A DNA stretch of 32,000 nucleotides from NCBI GenBank assembly GCA_016840465.1, contig JAEOSH010000017.1, forward strand, positions 1-32,000, given 5' to 3'. This stretch comes from Candidatus Baldrarchaeum yapensis (GTDB taxonomy: Archaea; Asgardarchaeota; Baldrarchaeia; Baldrarchaeales; Baldrarchaeaceae). The notes beneath the pieces were generated by a model. The model did not search any database and was not told the origin of the DNA. It saw only the letters and a list, made by a program, of their open reading frames with translations. Shown here piece by piece: positions 547 through 32,000 of this stretch. The position numbers and the translations under genes were made by a program. Numbering within the stretch: position 1 is the first letter of the stretch; each line of letters starts with the position of its first letter.

Positions 547-1363
547 GGATAAGATAATGCATGTGTTATTCCTCGTACCGACGCTCATAGCGGCGGGCAT
601 GCTTGTAATGATGTTAGCTTTTATGAGCGAGGGCATTGGACAGATCTCATGGAGGTTTTTGTCCTCAAGTATCTTCGAAGGTGGAATTTTCGAGCCCATC
701 ATGGGGACCTTCTTCCTCTTTCTGGGAACCGTGCTGATAACGATGCCCATCGGCATATTTGCCGCAATATACCTCGTCGAGTACGCGCCTAGAGATAGCA
801 AATTCGTCAGGATAGTTGATCAGGCGATAAACAACCTTGCGGGTGTGCCGTCGATAGTGATCGGACTTTTCGGGTACACATTCTTCTGTAAGATTCTGGG
901 GCTCGGAATATCGCTCGTTGCGGGTTGGCTCACCCTCACACTGATGATGCTCCCCATAATGATAAGGGGTACGGAGGAGGCTCTCAGGATGATACCTCAG
1001 TCCTTCAGGGAGGCGGCCATGGCGCTAGGTGCAACCAAATGGGAAACCGTGAGGGATGCCGTGCTTCCGGCCGCCATGCCCGGGATTCTAACGAGCATAC
1101 TTTTGGGTGTTGCGAGAGTTGCAGGTGAGACCGCCGCCATAATATTCACCGCCTCCGTGCTGACAATGAGGGGACTTCCGCGGACACCCCTTGAACCAGT
1201 GACATCACTGACCTTCTACCTGTTTGTGTTGCTGGTGGCGATCCCCAAGACGTCATACAAGGTGGCATTTGGTGTCGCATTGGTATTATTCGGAATAGTC
1301 TTCCTCTTTTCGGCGATAGCGACCGTCATAAGAATGTACTACCGCAGAAAGTGGAAGTGGTAA
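530..1363 (+). CDS. pstA: Phosphate ABC transporter permease PstA
   Basis: Motifs AIYLVEYA, LAGVPSIVIGLFG, EAAMALGATKWET and ARVAGETA. GTG start overlaps the end of pstC; alternative ATG at 557. Confidence 0.95.
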   Translation: MRPEFKDKIMHVLFLVPTLIAAGMLVMMLAFMSEGIGQISWRFLSSSIFEGGIFEPIMGTFFLFLGTVLITMPIGIFAAIYLVEYAPRDSKFVRIVDQAINNLAGVPSIVIGLFGYTFFCKILGLGISLVAGWLTLTLMMLPIMIRGTEEALRMIPQSFREAAMALGATKWETVRDAVLPAAMPGILTSILLGVARVAGETAAIIFTASVLTMRGLPRTPLEPVTSLTFYLFVLLVAIPKTSYKVAFGVALVLFGIVFLFSAIATVIRMYYRRKWKW

Positions 1364-1384
1364 CGGGGTAAAAATTTTTGTCCC

Positions 1385-1434
1385 CATCTACATACCGCTC
1401 TTCAAATCTATATAGATTATTTATTCATCTATAT
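1385..1434 (+). promoter_or_regulatory. Three phased (C/A)ATCTA(C/T)AT repeats including the palindrome AATCTATATAGATT; candidate regulator sites upstream of pstB
   Basis: Copies at 1385-1393, 1405-1413 and 1426-1434 (20 and 21 bp spacing). Perfect 14-bp palindrome at 1405-1418. TATA-like ATTATAAC near 1450. Confidence 0.45.
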
Positions 1435-1559
1435 GTTACTTCGAAAAGGATTATAACTGACCCCCTCGTGAGTAAGCATGGTGAACAAAAACGATATGCG
1501 AGTATTACCCTTCCAGCAAACGGAGAGTTTCCGGCTCTCCAAATCGCGGTGACGGAAAG

Positions 1560-2372
1560 ATGTTAACGGTCGCAACCTGCTGCATCCCAGAAGAATACTC
1601 CCATTCGTTCTCCCACAATCACGTCAAGTTGGAAACTCGAGATCTGAACGTGTGGTATGGGAGAAAGCACGTTCTGAAGAACATCAATATAAAGATTCCG
1701 GAGAAACGCGTCACCGCAATAATAGGACCCTCCGGTTGCGGAAAGACAACGTTTCTCAAGTCCCTTAACCGCCTGATAGAATTAGTGGACGGCGTGCGCG
1801 TGGAGGGAGAAGTGCTTCTCGACGGTGTTAACATCTATGACTCCCAACTAACGCCAACTGAGGTAAGAAAACGCGTGGGCATGGTGTTCCAGAAGCCAAA
1901 CCCCCTACCCAAGTCAATATACGAGAACGTCGCTTATGGGCCAAAACTCCATGGAATTAGGGACAAGGAGGAACTCGACAAAATCGTGAAGGAGGCACTG
2001 ATGGCCGCAGGGCTGTGGGATGAGGTAAAGGACAGGCTCCATGATTCCGCATTCGAACTTTCAGTGGGGCAGCAGCAGAGACTGTGCATAGCGCGCGCAA
2101 TTGCGGTGAAGCCGGAAGTCATCTTGATGGACGAACCCTGTGCATCGCTTGATCCCATCTCCACCGCCAAGGTTGAGGCGCTGATTCGAGAGCTGAGGGA
2201 AGAGTACACGATTGTGATAGTGACGCACAGCCTGCAACAGGCCATGAGGATCTCCGATTACACGGCGTTCTTCTACTACGGCGAGTTGATAGAATTCGGT
2301 CCCACCAAGAAGATCTTCGAGGAGCCCGAGCACGAACTCACGTACAGGTACATAACGGGTCAGTTTGGATAA
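1560..2372 (+). CDS. pstB: Phosphate ABC transporter ATP-binding protein PstB
   Basis: Walker [19 protein letters not shown], signature [14 protein letters not shown], Walker B LMDEP, and the pst context. Exact start is uncertain. Confidence 0.96.
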
Positions 2373-2375
2373 AAA

Positions 2376-2966
2376 TTAAAGGTTGATTTTTCGGAGAACC
2401 TTTTCCATAATTTCCTGATGCAGATTTCTGCCAGTACTGTCTATTGTGACAAAGAGCGGTCCGAATTTTTCCACCCTCAGAACCCAGAGGGCTTCCGGCA
2501 CCCCTAAATCAAGCCACTCCACGCGCTCGATGGAGGTTATCGCCCTTGCCGCCAAAACTCCCGCGCCCCCCGTGAATATACAGTAAACGGCTCCATACTC
2601 TCTGCACGCCATTGCAGTCTTCTCAAACATGCCTCCCTTTCCAATGATCATCCTGACTCCTAATTCCTTTATTATTTCGTGCTCGTAGTCCTCCATGCGC
2701 GCACTGGTGGTAGGACCCGCCGATAACACCTCCCACCCCCTCTCAAGCTTCCTGACTAGCGGGCCGCAGTGATAAAGCGCAAGTCCGTTCATATCTATCG
2801 GTAGCCTCCTCCCGGATCTCAGGTACTCAAGGATCCTCTTATGAGCGGCATCCCTCGCGGTTACAACGGTTCCACTAAGATAAACGATATCTCCCACTCT
2901 TAACTTCCTAATGACACCCTCCGTGAGCGGAGTTCTCAGGTGGTATTCACGTACCGCGCTCGTCAT
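2376..2966 (-). CDS. Class I fumarate hydratase / tartrate dehydratase beta subunit (Fe-S hydro-lyase C-terminal family)
   Basis: Motifs GDIVYLSG...TARDAAHKR, GPTTSARM, IIGKGGM, LGVPEALW and FGPLFVTIDS. Confidence 0.9.
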   Translation of the reverse strand: MTSAVREYHLRTPLTEGVIRKLRVGDIVYLSGTVVTARDAAHKRILEYLRSGRRLPIDMNGLALYHCGPLVRKLERGWEVLSAGPTTSARMEDYEHEIIKELGVRMIIGKGGMFEKTAMACREYGAVYCIFTGGAGVLAARAITSIERVEWLDLGVPEALWVLRVEKFGPLFVTIDSTGRNLHQEIMEKVLRKINL

Positions 2967-2991
2967 GCCGGCAATACTCCCTGGTTTTCTT

Positions 2992-3381
2992 TTAACCGCC
3001 CTCTTCCTTTACCGGAACAAACTTGTGAACCACCATTTTCTCCCTTCCCACGGTCACTTCCATGAAGTCCAGCCTGACAGGCATCCCTATCTTGAGATCT
3101 TCGTACTTCCCATCTATCCTCGAGAGCACTTTAACCCCTTCGTCCAGCTCCACAATCCCTAAAACCCCGGGAGGGAAGAGTATCGGATCTGGGTTTGTTG
3201 TGAAGGCGTACAGCTTCCCGCGTCCTGAAATTTCTCTCCACTCGAGATTCCTGGATCCGCAGAACGGGCAGAAGTTCCTAGGCGGATATATGTACTTGTC
3301 GCATTTCCCGCAGTACGGGAGCATAAACTTCCTACTACTTATATAGCCGAGAAACTTCTTTATAGGATCTTCAAACTCCAT
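2992..3381 (-). CDS. DUF35-family Zn-ribbon/OB-fold protein (thiolase partner)
   Basis: CGKC..YPPRNFCPFCG Zn ribbon followed by the GIVELDEG...IGMPV OB fold. Lies directly downstream of a thiolase-fold gene. Confidence 0.9.
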   Translation of the reverse strand: MEFEDPIKKFLGYISSRKFMLPYCGKCDKYIYPPRNFCPFCGSRNLEWREISGRGKLYAFTTNPDPILFPPGVLGIVELDEGVKVLSRIDGKYEDLKIGMPVRLDFMEVTVGREKMVVHKFVPVKEEGG

Positions 3382-3385
3382 AGCA

Positions 3386-4570
3386 TCACCCCTTCTCCAA
3401 AATCATCACCATGGATCCATTAACTGCTCCATGTTCTGCATGCACGGCGCCAACCTCTGCATCCTTCACCTGACGTTGCCCCGCTCTTCCGGTCAGTTGT
3501 AGAAATATTTCATAAACCTCGGCGAGCGGCGTGACATGTGGAGGATGGCCAAGCGACAGACGTCCACCGGAAGTGTTTATCGGGATCTCCCCATCGATTG
3601 TCGTCCTATCCTCCTTAATCGCCTGGATAGCCTCCCCCTTCCTGAAAAATCCCAACTCCTCGTATAACATTACCTCCGTTCCGCTGAATGGACCATAGAC
3701 CTCCGCAACGTCTATATCTTTTATCTTTCTCCCCGACTTCTGTAGAGCCTCCTCCATAGCCTTTCGGGCGCATGGGAATTCCGTCGCCGAGCCATATACG
3801 GGGAAGAAGCTTGTGGGATCATGGTGCTCCCCAATTCCGGTTATGTAAACCCTGTCCACGCCGAGATCCTTAGCCACCTTCTCGCTAGCAAGTATCAGAG
3901 CTGCCGCCCCCTCAGATGTTGGGCAACAGTCCAGAATGTGCAATGGTGGGCACACGACCTTCGACTTGAGAACGTCCTCTACTGTTATGGGATCCCGAAA
4001 CTGAGCCTTCTCGTTCATTGATGCATGTTTCCTCAGCACCACCGGAACGTATGCGAGATCCTCTCTCGAGACTCCGTACTCGTACATGTACCGCTGTGTT
4101 ATCATTGCGTAGTAAACGATTGGTTTCATTATTCCGTACCTCTTGTCGAGTGGACCATAGAATCCATTGACAAGGTACAAGAGATACATGTGGCGCTGGG
4201 GGTTCCACTCCTCCCTGACTACTTGCTTCTCGGCGGCATACACCAGCGCAATGTTGCATCTGCCCATTAGTATCTCGAAGGCGGCATACTTCAGCGCAAC
4301 AAGACTACTCACCCCACCTATCTCAACCATAGCTTGGGCCTTCGTATCGGTAAAGAAGTACTCCCCTAGGTGCTGAGTTGCAAGCCAGTCGACGTCCTCG
4401 GGGTCGATTATATAGCCCTGAGGAACCGTGAAGATCCCGTTAATGTCCCGAGGGCCTATGCCTGCCATGTCAAGGGCCTCGAATATCGCCATGAGAGCAA
4501 GTTCCCTAGAGCCGCGATCCCACTTTCTACGGATCGGTGTCATCCCAGCGCCTATTATTGCCACCCTCAA
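3386..4570 (-). CDS. SCP2/thiolase-fold protein lacking the catalytic Cys (possible Ltp2-like aldolase)
   Basis: VAIIGAGMT N-terminus, AQFRDPIT, DCCPTSEGAAALIL and INTSGGRLSLGHP. VEIGGVSS replaces VExACASG. Likely TTG start at 4570; the ORF is open to 4627. Confidence 0.82.
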   Translation of the reverse strand: MRVAIIGAGMTPIRRKWDRGSRELALMAIFEALDMAGIGPRDINGIFTVPQGYIIDPEDVDWLATQHLGEYFFTDTKAQAMVEIGGVSSLVALKYAAFEILMGRCNIALVYAAEKQVVREEWNPQRHMYLLYLVNGFYGPLDKRYGIMKPIVYYAMITQRYMYEYGVSREDLAYVPVVLRKHASMNEKAQFRDPITVEDVLKSKVVCPPLHILDCCPTSEGAAALILASEKVAKDLGVDRVYITGIGEHHDPTSFFPVYGSATEFPCARKAMEEALQKSGRKIKDIDVAEVYGPFSGTEVMLYEELGFFRKGEAIQAIKEDRTTIDGEIPINTSGGRLSLGHPPHVTPLAEVYEIFLQLTGRAGQRQVKDAEVGAVHAEHGAVNGSMVMILEKG

Positions 4571-25245: not shown

Positions 25246-26177
25246 ATGATGCTAAAGAACGTAATATTAATAACAATTGATTGCTTGAGACCCGATCATT
25301 TGAACTGCTACGGATATAAGCGTATAACGTCTCCGTTTATAAGTTCATTAGCGCGAACCGGCTGGATTTTCACAAATTTCTTTGCAAACTCTTCTTACAC
25401 GTGTGCATCAATAGCCTCAATGATCACCAGCACATATCCCTTTGACTACGGCGAGTACCTCGAGTTCTCCACACCCGCAAGATTGTCTAAAAAGAGACTA
25501 TTATTATCAGAAGTTTTGAAAAAGTACGGCTACTCAACGGCATTCTTTCACGATAACCCGTACTTATCACCAATATTCGGCTACAACAGGGGATTTGATG
25601 TTTGTATAGACTTTGGAAGAAAGGTGCTCAGTAGCATTAGATCCAAAAGAAGATTCCTCAATTTAATGTTCAAAAATAAGAAGATACAAGATCTGCTCTG
25701 GAAGATAAAGGATTTCGTCCTTCTGATAGATTGGTTCATACGAGGAAAACCTATACGGACCGATGCCGAAACAATATTGCGAGAAGCTTATAAGTGGTCA
25801 CGGAAGGCTAGCCGACCCTTCTTCCTCTGGATGCACCTCATGGATACTCACATACCGTATTCACCCAAGCATGAGGTGCTCAAACAATTCGGTATAAGCA
25901 AGCTCAGAGCCGCCATGATACTGTACAAACAGATATTCAGGAAGAATATTTCAAAAGAAGAAGTACGTCTGGTAAAACTATTATACGACTCTCAGATATA
26001 TCAAATCGACCAGGCATTGGCAAAATATCTGCCTAAGATGGTCAATCACGACTTCGAAGATACTTACATAATAATTACAGCAGATCACGGAGAAGAGTTC
26101 TTCGAAAACGGAAGAATAGGGCACTCAGGCGTCTTAACTGATACGCTACTACGCGTGCCACTGATAATATGTGGTGG
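25246..26177 (+). pseudogene. Sulfatase / alkaline-phosphatase-superfamily gene, 5' part, interrupted by IS607
   Basis: Motifs LITIDCLRPDH, HLMDTHIPY, YDSQI, ITADHGEEF, GH and RVPLII. The frame continues after the IS. Confidence 0.88.
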
Positions 26178-28027
26178 GCTGAAACGTATAGTGTTGCATT
26201 CGTAGCATTTAAGTACTTTTGTTGCATCAGATGATGTGATGACAAAATTATATAGAACTGGGAAGGTTGCGGAGATTCTTGGAGTAAATAGAGTTACGGT
26301 AATTAGGTGGATTAAGCAAGGTAAGATTAAAGCGGTGAGAGTTGGTAAAGAGTATAGGATTCCAGAAGATGAAGTGAAAAGATTACTTAAAGGTAAGGTT
26401 ATTAATACAGCGGTTATTTATGCTCGTGTGAGTTCTTCAGACCAAAGGAGCGATTTGGAGAGGCAAGTTGAATATCTTAAGGAGTATTGCACAGCTAGAG
26501 GATACAATGTAGTTGGTATTCTAGCAGATATTGCTTCTGGATTAAATGAAAAGCGAAGAGGTTTGAAAAAGCTGTTTGAATACGTTGTAAACGGAAAGGT
26601 TGACGTTGTAGTAATCAGCTACAAGGATAGACTTACGAGATTTGGGTTCAGGTATTTAGAAGAGTTCTTCAACTCACATGGAGTTAGAATTGAAGTCGTT
26701 TTCGGAGAAGAACCTAAGGATTTACAGCAAGAGCTAATTGAAGACTTAATTGCCATTGTAACATCATTTGCTGGTCGATTATACGGAATGAGAAGTCATA
26801 AAAAGAAGAAGGTGGTAGAGAGTGTCAAGCAAGCGATCAGAGACTGTTAAACTCACGGCAAGGTTCAAACTCGATGGTGAAGTAGATGAGAGACTGTTCG
26901 AAACGTACAAACGGATTGTCAATGAATTGTTGGATTACGCTCATTCCAAAGGAATTACCTCGTTCAAGAGACTGAAGTCCGAAAAATATCACGAGTTGAG
27001 GCAAGAGTACCCCGAATTGCCGTCTCATTACATTTACACGGCGTGCCAGATGGCTTGCTCCATCTATAAGTCGTTTAGAAAGCTTAAAAGAAAGGGAAAG
27101 ACAAAATCCGAAAAACCATTACTAAGGAAAGATGTAATTATGCTTGATGACCACCTGTTTAAGCTAGACTTGGAAAAATGGAAAGTCAGAATTTCTGTTC
27201 CCGATGGAAAATTGGAGTTTAAGCTTTTGCATGGAGAGTATCACGAGAGATTTAAGGACTGGAAGGTCGGTCAGGCATGGCTGGTCAGAAAGCCTGACGG
27301 AGTTTATCTGAACGTAGTATTCTCAAAGAATGTCGAGATGCTACATTGTGTGGATGTCATAGGTGTTGACGTGAACGAAAACAACATTACTGTTGCGACC
27401 AATCGGGGCTTTGTGAACTTTGGGACGAGAGAAAGGGTAATTAGAACCGCTTACTTCCTGAAGAGAAGGAGAATCCAAACCAAGATTAAGAGCAAGAGGG
27501 TTAAAGCTAGGATTTTGGCAAAATATCGTGATAGGGAAAGAAACAGGGTTCTGGACATTTACCATAAAGTTGCTAATGAAATTGTCAGATTGGCATTAAA
27601 AATGAGGTCTGCAATAGCCCTAGAAAGTCTCAAAGAAATAAGGAGTAGGATAAACTACTCAAAGGAGCTGAACGGAAGGTTGCATAGATGGAGTTTCAGG
27701 AGATTTCAACAAATATTGGAGTACAAGGCTAAACTCAATGGTATTGCGGTTATTTATGTCGATCCTCACAAAACCTCCCGCCTCTGCCCGATATGTGGGA
27801 GGAAGCTAAGCCCGAATGGGCGGAGGCGGTTGAAGTGCGAATGCGGGCTGGTTGCTGATAGAGATGTCATCGGTAGTTGGAATATCAGATTGAGAGGTTT
27901 GAGATCTTTAAAGATAGATGTGGGGAGCACCGTTCCCCCCGAAAGCCCGTCGATGAACCCCGAGACGGGAAGACTCTCCGCTACACATGCATCAAAAGTT
28001 GTGAAAGTAGCGGAGAGTCAGAACGGG
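26178..28027 (+). mobile_element. IS607-family insertion sequence (serine-recombinase tnpA plus tnpB)
   Basis: Removing 26178-28027 restores the host frame (TGT GGT GG|T TTA AAG). GG is present at both junctions, there are no terminal inverted repeats, and TGTTGCAT direct repeats sit in the left end (26192, 26220). Confidence 0.92.
26236..26850 (+). CDS. tnpA: IS607 transposase (MerR-like HTH plus serine recombinase)
   Basis: YRTGKVAEILGV HTH, VIYARVSS catalytic motif, YKDRLTRFG and ELIEDLIAIVTSFAGRLYGMRS. Confidence 0.96.
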   Translation: MMTKLYRTGKVAEILGVNRVTVIRWIKQGKIKAVRVGKEYRIPEDEVKRLLKGKVINTAVIYARVSSSDQRSDLERQVEYLKEYCTARGYNVVGILADIASGLNEKRRGLKKLFEYVVNGKVDVVVISYKDRLTRFGFRYLEEFFNSHGVRIEVVFGEEPKDLQQELIEDLIAIVTSFAGRLYGMRSHKKKKVVESVKQAIRDC

Positions 28028-28132
28028 TTTAAAGCACAAAGTGATCGACATAAAGGCATCCCTAATAGACCTTGCACCCACAATATTGGATCTTCTCGGA
28101 TTGAAAATTCCACGCCGCTTCAAAGGAACTAG
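26822..28132 (+). CDS. tnpB: TnpB RNA-guided endonuclease; the ORF reads through the right end into host DNA
   Basis: RuvC-I GVDVN, RuvC-II IALESL, CPICG/CECG Zn finger and RuvC-III DRDVIGSWNI. All three acidic residues are present. Confidence 0.94.
   Translation: MSSKRSETVKLTARFKLDGEVDERLFETYKRIVNELLDYAHSKGITSFKRLKSEKYHELRQEYPELPSHYIYTACQMACSIYKSFRKLKRKGKTKSEKPLLRKDVIMLDDHLFKLDLEKWKVRISVPDGKLEFKLLHGEYHERFKDWKVGQAWLVRKPDGVYLNVVFSKNVEMLHCVDVIGVDVNENNITVATNRGFVNFGTRERVIRTAYFLKRRRIQTKIKSKRVKARILAKYRDRERNRVLDIYHKVANEIVRLALKMRSAIALESLKEIRSRINYSKELNGRLHRWSFRRFQQILEYKAKLNGIAVIYVDPHKTSRLCPICGRKLSPNGRRRLKCECGLVADRDVIGSWNIRLRGLRSLKIDVGSTVPPESPSMNPETGRLSATHASKVVKVAESQNGFKAQSDRHKGIPNRPCTHNIGSSRIENSTPLQRN
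27917..28047 (+). ncRNA. Predicted TnpB omegaRNA (right-end scaffold plus about 20-nt guide TTTAAAGCACAAAGTGATCG)
   Basis: GATGTGGGG start, K-loop CCCGTC-GATGAACCCCGA-GACGGG (27946-27969), perfect 13-bp stem 27972-27984/28007-28019, then the element end. The 5' boundary is approximate. Confidence 0.7.
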
Positions 28133-30949: not shown

Positions 30950-31034
30950 CGCATAAAGCGATAACTCTCATGTTAGCATCAACCTTTCTGCGTGTTATTT
31001 CATAGAACACTCTCTGAAACTCTTTGAAGTTTAC
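30933..31034 (-). pseudogene. Putative 3' remnant of a host gene cut by the LAGLIDADG element
   Basis: Open frame VNFKEFQRVFYEITRRKVDANMRVIALCGGKHV* starts at the GG junction. Its stop overlaps the EamA start, like an operon junction. Confidence 0.4.
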
Positions 31035-31313
31035 CGTCAGAGGGGGCCCACCAAAAGGTTGTCATTCGTCAAGCCTTACACTTCAATCGTCCCCGCTTTA
31101 TGCGCTCAAGGATCCGCTAGCGCCCAAGGGGTTCAGCGGATGTCCGCATTGATGAGCAGACATCCGCCTTGGGACGCATCAACCTCAACTCCCTCGGGGT
31201 TCATCGGGAGTAAATCATCGGTCTCGCCCCCTTTCGGGGTAACCCCTCTCCTTCTCAGGATTGGCTCGATTAATTCGAGCCAAACCTTCATTGAAGGAGG
31301 AAAACCCCACATC
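31034..31313 (-). ncRNA. omegaRNA-like structured RNA overlapping the 3' end of the LAGLIDADG gene
   Basis: Shares GATGTGGGG, CCCCGAAAG and the GATGAACCCCGA K-loop with the tnpB 3' end at 27917-27969. Has extra K-turn hairpins and ends ...CTGACGG. Confidence 0.72.
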
Positions 31314-32000
31314 GTTTGTCCCTCTTATACTCCACTTTTTAAGCCAATACTTAATAGTAGTTCTATGGACTCCAAGCTTTTTGGCAAGTTCATTCAAAGT
31401 TAACCCTTGTCTTAAATATTCAACAAGCCTATCCTTGTCTACAGCCCCTCTTCTATAAGGCTTTCTGATTACTTGCATATTACCAAGTAATTCTTGAAGC
31501 TTTTGTTTACGGGTCTTATTCTTCATGTAATTGATAACCTTTCTACCCAACCTTATTATGTCCCTTTTTCTATAGATGGAAAGAGCGAATTCTGCTCCAT
31601 TTTTGTGAACACATGGATGATAGTTATACTTAAGTAACTTGCATCTCATCTTCTCTAGCCATGTCTTATCGGTGTTTAATATTCGTATCTCGCCCTCCCC
31701 AGTTTTAATACGTTTGCGGAACCTTATATTTCCATCACCATCTATTGCTCCTGCTATGTATGCGTATAATTCCTCCTCATTTTCGGGTACACTTTTCTTT
31801 GAAGAAAGTAAGAACTCAAATGATGGGTCTAATATAGCGTATCTATAGCTCATCGGAAGTCCAGTCTTTTTGTCTATAGTGTCTGTAGAATTTACCTTAG
31901 TGTACTTACCAAAAACTTCTTCAAAAATCTCTAAAATCTCCTGTCAGGTACTTCCTACAATCACTTCAATTTGTTCTCCTAATCGTCTCACGAAAATGTC
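31215..32000 (-). CDS. LAGLIDADG-family endonuclease with C-terminal HTH; 5'-truncated by the window, in-frame TGA at 31946-31944
   Basis: YIAGAIDGDGNI LAGLIDADG helix and LTLNELAKKLGVHRTTIKYWL HTH. The same frame continues upstream (DIFVRRLGEQIEVIVGST*QEILEIFEEVFGKY) to the window edge. Confidence 0.82.

Follow-up and report, generated by a model that had tools for sequence, protein, structure and literature searches.

We analysed a 32,000-nucleotide (nt) stretch of the archaeon Candidatus Baldrarchaeum yapensis (hereafter the window; bases 1–32000 of the 37.5-kb contig C96), at whose end an open reading frame (ORF) for a LAGLIDADG–helix-turn-helix (HTH) protein lies directly upstream of a structured RNA resembling the omegaRNA guides of TnpB. 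This gene is very probably a selfish, 840-bp homing-endonuclease cassette, inserted between the tnpB gene of an IS607-family insertion sequence (IS) and that tnpB's own guide-RNA scaffold. The contig extends 5.5 kb beyond the window end, and its retrieved remainder carries tnpA and tnpB immediately upstream of the LAGLIDADG ORF, on the same strand. The resulting insertion sequence, denoted element B, occupies the minus strand from contig position ~33862 to 31125 and consists of tnpA, tnpB and a right-end omegaRNA scaffold. Its TnpA has an N-terminal MerR-type HTH (Pfam scores of 98.8 bits for Resolvase, 49.4 bits for HTH_17 and 41.2 bits for MerR), and its TnpB scores 40.7 bits for OrfB_IS605 and 41.5 bits for Cas12f1-like_TNB. 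An intact IS607 copy inside the window, element A, is used here for comparison (Table 1).

An earlier interpretation made from the letters of the window (hereafter the sequence-only reading) had proposed that an element derived from IS607 or IS605 replaced tnpB with the LAGLIDADG–HTH gene and kept the omegaRNA, giving a new endonuclease–RNA particle or a protein-guided substitute for TnpB. Inside the window, the LAGLIDADG ORF is the only gene upstream of the scaffold, and the linkage between the two does recur, with the same junction in five further contigs. However, the gene seemed to stand in place of tnpB because the window boundary cut off the upstream tnpB. The upstream contig contains the tnpA that the sequence-only reading had hoped to find there, but tnpB is present as well, and comparison with uninterrupted copies bearing the same scaffold shows the LAGLIDADG gene to be a clean insertion. 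This scaffold also occurs with tnpB and no LAGLIDADG gene (loci L020 and L007) and as stand-alone copies. Furthermore, a protein endonuclease with a fixed site is unable to recognize the variable donor sites targeted by TnpB. The contig sequence thus contradicts replacement of tnpB, which we find barely credible, and we see no sign that the LAGLIDADG enzyme is guided by RNA or bound to it.

Borders of the cassette and its surrogate tail

The borders of the insert are defined by L020, an uninterrupted homologue from another genome, in which tnpB reads ..NASINLYLRM-WVFPPSMKVW..PMNPEG.. to its stop and the scaffold overlaps the final 60 codons. In a BLAST comparison, the flanks of L020 and element B match up to ..CTAAGRATG and resume at ATGTGGG.., with 840 bp extra in element B; the empty site in L020 has ..AAACTTATACCTAAGAATG joined directly to TGGGTTTTTCCTCC.. 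at this point. Insertion took place exactly behind the RuvC-III codons ..NLYLRM, which puts the cassette 28 nt upstream of the first hairpin of the scaffold. The same two junctions are found in L021, L022, L023, L024 and L042, five further contigs with 63–99% protein identity and with nucleotide identities to element B of 99.8% (L021), ~90% (L042), 77% (L024), 73% (L022) and 67% (L023). The site is occupied with an identical junction in 6 copies, and it is empty in L020, L007 and L008.

The first 28 codons of the cassette extend the tnpB frame (KDMKPCLNSWKYVKRLLDRGGVTWLEVT) and are followed by a stop, so that tnpB stays closed and the omegaRNA remains intact downstream on the same strand. This surrogate tail looks like the native tail that it displaced, over the latter's first 25 residues (P..W..V..IL..GGVT), with only 2 of 1000 column shuffles scoring equally well, and over its own 28–29 codons it is conserved as protein, with a ratio of nonsynonymous to synonymous substitution rates (dN/dS) of 0.17–0.36 in diverged pairs. 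The likeness and the protein-level conservation together indicate that the cassette closes the tnpB frame with a look-alike C terminus. In the uninterrupted relative L007 (G001:C47), a TAG replaces a Trp codon and stops tnpB right after ..YLRM (~1595), which suggests that the protein can do without the long native tail. The displaced region downstream of the cassette behaves like an RNA, since L042 has a frameshift in the displaced tail yet keeps its hairpin.

A rival explanation is that the 840 bp are spliced out to restore tnpB or its mRNA, as an archaeal bulge-helix-bulge (BHB) intron, a group I or II intron or an intein that carries the endonuclease. Introns and inteins are the usual hosts of LAGLIDADG genes, the length of the insert is a multiple of three, and the best fold matches of the protein are archaeal intron enzymes. 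Nevertheless, no BHB geometry exists at any junction register in element B, and none is consistent at a second insertion site in the TnpB zinc finger (L025 and L027, described below); the scan covered every register at both sites for two 3-nt bulges separated by a 4-bp helix, a motif that ~5% of shuffles produce by chance, and element B showed no central helix. One pairing between exon 1 and the 3′ end of the insert, CTTATAC/GTATAAG, came up in RNAfold mini-constructs and was rejected for its geometry, which is wrong for a BHB. Against group I and group II introns, Rfam 15, including its intron families, produced no match at E ≤ 1 for L001 (the retrieved part of contig C96) and L002 (contig C55), and beyond the 28 tail codons and the endonuclease gene only ~14 nt of the insert are non-coding. 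An intein would require one continuous frame with Hint blocks, but the tnpB frame meets a stop after 28 codons of the insert, the endonuclease gene uses a different frame and no space is left for a Hint domain. Conservation of the surrogate tail also speaks for translation that terminates within the insert. We give a spliced element a very slim chance and retain the homing-endonuclease cassette.

In L021 (1296–1480), 6 nt past the 3′ junction of the cassette, the sequence switches to a left end of the element A type (89% identical to window positions 26174–26226). The switch is either a nested insertion of IS607 or of a miniature inverted-repeat transposable element (MITE) at ..TGTGGG, or a chimeric assembly; ..TGTGGG resembles the target of element A in a sulfatase gene (..TGTGGTGGG).

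Table 1 Features of element B, its cassette and the comparison element A (window coordinates, which are also those of contig C96)
Feature	Position	Strand	Remarks
Cassette, 840 bp	contig C96 31310/31313 to 32149/32152	minus	3-nt ATG ambiguity; from BLAST against L020
Part of cassette inside window	31310–32000	minus	remaining 150 bp past window end
ORF of the sequence-only reading	31215–31853	minus	internal-ATG remnant with second LAGLIDADG domain and HTH; LAGLIDADG_3 and HTH signals
Premature in-frame TGA, codon 46	31944–31946	minus	CGA (Arg) in the 99.8%-identical metagenome copy
Element B right end, omegaRNA-like scaffold	31125–31312	minus	core 31125–31251; extra covarying hairpin ~31262–31280; ends ..GCTGAACCCC
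Hairpin ACTCCC / GATGAACCCCGA / GGGAGT	31188–31211	minus	stem covaries, loop conserved
Element B tnpB	contig 32063–33220, past window end	minus	385 codons; Pfam OrfB_IS605 and Cas12f1-like_TNB above cut-off
Element B tnpA	contig 33192–33800, past window end	minus	202 codons; serine recombinase, Resolvase and MerR-type HTH
Element A, intact IS607	26236–28132	plus	tnpA 26236–26850 (Pfam Resolvase and HTH_17); tnpB 26822–28132 (Cas12f1-like_TNB)
Element A right end, omegaRNA-like	27912–28029	plus	>20 copies in genome, MITE-like pairs of left and right ends
Fragment of a different repeat family	31040–31124	minus	at least 10 genome copies ending GGTGGGCYC; abuts element B right end

The LAGLIDADG–HTH protein

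The endonuclease gene begins MARSNITKK.., overlaps the end of the surrogate tail and encodes a product of ~252 residues in another frame than tnpB; a GGAGGTG ribosome-binding site is embedded in the surrogate-tail codons. The full-length homologues P0001–P0004 begin MARS.., which corresponds to contig position 32081, and P0002–P0004 stop before the junction. The window copy has no stop of its own, and its ORF reads 32 codons into the omegaRNA. The sequence-only reading was correct that this ORF runs into structured RNA, but what it saw is the part downstream of the premature TGA, crossing the insertion junction; it is because of the TGA at codon 46 and the lost stop that the window shows a piece of 212 codons.

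The protein is predicted to be a monomeric, double-motif enzyme of the LAGLIDADG homing-endonuclease type with a C-terminal HTH. The Pfam family LAGLIDADG_3 matches P0003 with 30.2 bits (cut-off 22.5), and an AlphaFold2 model built with 48 sequences (predicted local distance difference test 92.3, predicted template-modelling score 0.81) displays a repeated H-E-E-H-E-E pattern. The top matches in a Foldseek search of the PDB are E-DreI, I-Tsp061I, I-DmoI, the bI3 maturase and I-AniI, the best at probability 1.0. A search of the PDB by sequence returned weak HTH hits only, and the fold relatives surfaced through the fold search. The acidic residues that end the two motifs, D28 (..GLCATD) and D116 (..AGAIDGDG), are invariant in five close homologues; among 48 distant homologues, position 28 is Asp in at least 90%, and the consensus at position 116 is Glu (motif ..AG..D.EG). 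WhiA (3hyi), which shares the layout of LAGLIDADG with a C-terminal HTH, ranks 49th in the fold search; we rejected a WhiA-like regulator because such regulators lack the catalytic acidic residues, both of which are retained here despite the shared architecture.

Like I-DmoI, I-Tsp061I and the E-DreI chimera, the protein has a double alpha-beta-beta-alpha-beta-beta-alpha fold, an acidic residue at the end of each motif and ~250 amino acids, although there is no detectable sequence similarity to the three. As for I-DmoI and I-Tsp061I, the gene is found at one defined site in a conserved gene. However, those two enzymes reside in BHB introns of rRNA, whereas the gene described here is free-standing in a protein-coding transposon gene and encodes an extra C-terminal HTH.

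Across six copies, the dN/dS of the endonuclease gene is 0.07–0.11, with synonymous sites near saturation; strong purifying selection has thus preserved a functional gene in the lineage through long divergence. Close relatives are rare, with 5 hits among 5.8 billion proteins and one more in a metagenome-assembled genome. An exhaustive profile-free search gave one 50% cluster followed by a long tail of remote double-LAGLIDADG proteins. None of 400 genomes of the phylum contains a close homologue of the endonuclease; they yielded only matches to the tail and omegaRNA.

The omegaRNA-type scaffold

Downstream of the cassette, the right end of element B folds into a real, covarying scaffold of the TnpB omegaRNA type, related to that of the intact IS607 in the window. 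The segment 31122–31315 (minus) folds with −92.5 kcal/mol (z = −6.4), a value that none of 200 shuffles equalled. Compensatory changes occur in 19 of 37 predicted pairs across 8 homologues of the B-type scaffold. The consensus structure includes a long-range GGGGUU/AACCCC closing helix, a terminal hairpin of 10 bp and a further hairpin whose loop, GAUGAACCCNGA, is conserved. From the B-type scaffolds we built a covariance model covering their 127-nt core; it scores 141 bits on 31125–31251, and its second-best match within the window, aligned end-to-end with 14.9 bits (rough E 0.004), is element A's right end (27925–28029). In the uninterrupted L020, this structured right-end RNA overlaps the 3′ end of tnpB. 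Rfam applied to the window at its gathering threshold has no family that matches the scaffold RNA.

The end-to-end match agrees with the same ordered landmarks that the sequence-only reading had named in both scaffolds, and its coordinates are exact: GATGTGGGG lies at 27917 (plus) and 31313–31305 (minus), CCCCGAAAG at 27937 (plus) and 31239–31231 (minus), and GATGAACCCCGA at 27952 (plus) and 31205–31194 (minus). The two hairpins to which it pointed, ACTCCC..GGGAGT (31211–31188) and CCCGTC..GACGGG (27946–27969), are likewise present. In homologues, the stem of the element B hairpin appears as GCTCCC/GGGAGC, GTCCCC/GGGGAC and CCACC/GGTGG. By eye, the loop GAUGAACCCCGA (31194–31205 and 27952–27963) with its covarying stems fits the pattern stem-NNN-GA-loop-GA-stem, which we take to be that of the archaeal L7Ae K-loop. 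In the tnpB frame, the same loop encodes the conserved PMNPE.

The extent of the RNA differs from what the sequence-only reading had described. The structure measures ~189 nt rather than the ~280 nt given there, and similarity to homologues stops near 31125. Every scaffold homologue ends ..GCTGAACCCC (GAACCCC) near this position, with ..AGAACGGG as the counterpart in element A, and not at the CTGACGG (31034) that had been taken for the unit end. No scaffold homologue extends into 31040–31124, and 31034–31124 gives no fold signal (z = +1.6 versus shuffles). We therefore place the right end of element B at ~31125; a guide, if used, would begin just after 31125, and the guide proposed previously, TAAACTTC..., is rejected along with the CTGACGG end.

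The segment that abuts the scaffold belongs to a third repeat family, with copies on contigs C6, C49, C22, C41, C94, C44, C38, C92, C67 and C16. Its members are conserved over 90 to ~300 nt up to a terminal ..GACAACCTTTTGGTGGGCTC, beyond which the flanks vary, and they resemble the right end of a further element that carries a guide RNA.

Distribution of the cassettes and known systems

A second, unrelated LAGLIDADG lineage interrupts related tnpBs within the codons of the first zinc-finger CxxC; it occurs in a related IS607 on contig C55 of the same genome and on the metagenome contigs L025, L027 and L029. Members of this lineage carry their HTH at the N terminus, but the L042 copy lacks it. 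The zinc-finger insertions split tnpB into N-terminal and C-terminal ORFs with ATGA stop/start overlaps. In L025 and L027, both tnpB halves are in frame and the ORFs are ATGA-coupled. On C55 (locus L002, IS607 at 1079–3779), the LAGLIDADG gene that splits tnpB has 257 codons and likewise encodes its HTH at the N terminus; this copy has decayed, with the tnpB halves out of frame and a TAA at the restored junction. Both cassettes are present in one element in L042 (CAYWXE010000111.1, 1491–2086 and 2196–3040) and in L022 (1–309); the zinc-finger cassette of L042 replaces 12 nt (the ICSR codons).

The copies cover all four occupancy states: neither site in L020 and L007; the tail site only in element B, L021, L023 and L024; the zinc-finger site only in C55, L025, L027 and L029; and both sites in L042 and L022. 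The two cassettes therefore move independently. The flanks of element B are nearer to those of the empty L020 and L007 (82–85%) than to those of the cassette-bearing L022 and L023. This is the pattern that independently mobile homing-endonuclease genes produce, and it is from the distribution of copies that we infer homing.

In the cycle that we propose, the endonuclease would cut uninterrupted copies of this tnpB site, and repair would copy the cassette in. The multi-copy, horizontally moving insertion sequence would supply the targets and act as a vehicle for the cassette, the endonuclease would be expressed from the IS transcript through its coupling to tnpB, and the omegaRNA would go on working with the upstream TnpB rather than with the LAGLIDADG protein. 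The cycle appears to be over in this genome: even with up to 8 mismatches allowed in 36 nt, the assembly has no empty target site, and the endonuclease gene is broken by a nonsense codon and lacks a stop of its own. The nonsense mutation and the absent empty site fit the decay phase of a homing cycle.

Alternatively, the cassette may be a retained, cooperating module, in which the HTH protein regulates the insertion sequence, acts as a maturase or chaperone for the adjacent RNA, or uncouples TnpB coding from omegaRNA structure. A dN/dS of ~0.08 over saturated synonymous divergence, the conserved surrogate tail and the overlapping or tightly coupled ORFs would suit such a role, as would a domain layout that recalls WhiA and the presence of maturases among the fold matches. 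Yet both catalytic acidic residues are conserved, uninterrupted elements exist, and the presence/absence polymorphism together with a decaying copy in a genome that has no empty site fits a selfish homing cycle; we consider cooperation unlikely. In a more specific form of the idea, the LAGLIDADG–HTH protein would bind the downstream omegaRNA and aid its folding or maturation, forming with the surrogate tail a stable three-part composite element in which coding and guide-RNA structure are uncoupled. I-AniI and bI3, both bifunctional intron maturases, provide the analogy for this proposal, which seems very unlikely to us.

Several points weigh against the selfish homing cassette. Cleavage of empty sites by the endonuclease is putative and homing is read from the distribution of copies, and the strong, long-term purifying selection on endonuclease and surrogate tail would also fit a cassette that benefits the insertion sequence. 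Most of the homologous contigs are metagenome fragments of 1–3 kb, so that there are few independent events, and the four occupancy states could arise partly from precise losses rather than gains. Finally, the host nuclease may be altered or dead: the RuvC-III of element B TnpB (contig C96 32153–32170, minus) is I-N-R-Q-L-N-A-S, whereas ISDra2 TnpB (8bf8) has H-D359-R-D361-E-N-A-A, so that NRQ aligns to DRD, which makes continued service of the RNA to this TnpB tentative. The position of the canonical D361 is Q throughout the B/C55/L025 family, and that of D359 is N in element B, L020, L007, L024 and L042 and D in L022, L023, C55, L025 and L027. Among the few copies available, the NRQ/DRQ variant does not correlate with the presence of the endonuclease.

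With the cassette read as a homing-endonuclease gene, the nested element is a variant of known homing-endonuclease biology. In fungal mitochondria, LAGLIDADG and GIY-YIG genes insert in the 3′ part of rps3 (Ophiostoma) and atp6 (Allomyces) and bring a replacement C terminus. Fusions of rps3 with endonuclease genes are mentioned in PMC5626475. As in these fungal cases, the endonuclease gene lies inside a coding gene whose frame is closed by a look-alike tail of the insert, with the native tail displaced downstream. Unlike them, the host here is an archaeal IS607 tnpB, and the displaced tail is no dead remnant but a transposon guide-RNA scaffold under RNA-structure constraint.

Element B resembles other IS607 elements with TnpB and omegaRNA, and ISDra2-type biology (Karvelis 2021, PMC8612924; Nety 2023, PMC10278001), in its MerR-HTH/resolvase TnpA, in a TnpB with OrfB_IS605 and zinc-finger TNB domains, and in a structured right-end RNA, which in relatives without the insert overlaps with the 3′ end of tnpB. 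It differs from other IS607 elements in that a foreign gene separates the nuclease gene from its RNA by 840 bp, in the RuvC-III NRQ instead of DRD and in the lack of an Rfam match. IStrons, in which a group I intron is fused to an IS605 or IS607 tnpB (Tourasse 2014, PMC4227781; Zedaveinyte 2023, bioRxiv 10.1101/2023.11.20.567912), similarly nest a second selfish element with a TnpB transposon and share an RNA end; unlike IStrons, element B has no ribozyme or splicing signal, and its partner is a protein homing endonuclease inside the insertion sequence, not an intron around it. Full-text literature searches for TnpB with LAGLIDADG, and for homing endonucleases with archaeal IS607, returned conceptual comparisons only and no description of such nesting.

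A tnpB gene that overlaps its own guide RNA is under joint constraint, and the cassette splits this overlap at a point where both halves still seem to work. The cassette brings a substitute protein tail, and structural constraint alone would then govern the evolution of the RNA. The locus is thus a natural experiment that separates the parts of the tnpB 3′ end important to the protein from those important to the RNA, in a gene family whose product, TnpB, is the ancestor of Cas12. LAGLIDADG genes of at least two independent origins reside in archaeal IS607 tnpB genes, as selfish elements within a selfish element, and they offer new candidate meganucleases of the thermophile type with a defined 30–40-bp candidate target. 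For annotation, such inserts make tnpB appear truncated or 'replaced', as happened at the window edge.

Traces of the comparison element are found elsewhere in the genome. The right-end module of element A (27912–28026) and its left end (26176–26221) recur together on >15 contigs, ~110 nt apart, and these paired ends are MITE-like miniature derivatives that keep the omegaRNA without the genes. Past the window, at 35011–35181 of contig C96, 171 nt on the opposite strand are 82% identical to nt 362–532 of the element A tnpA, a tnpA fragment near VapC/PIN-type genes.

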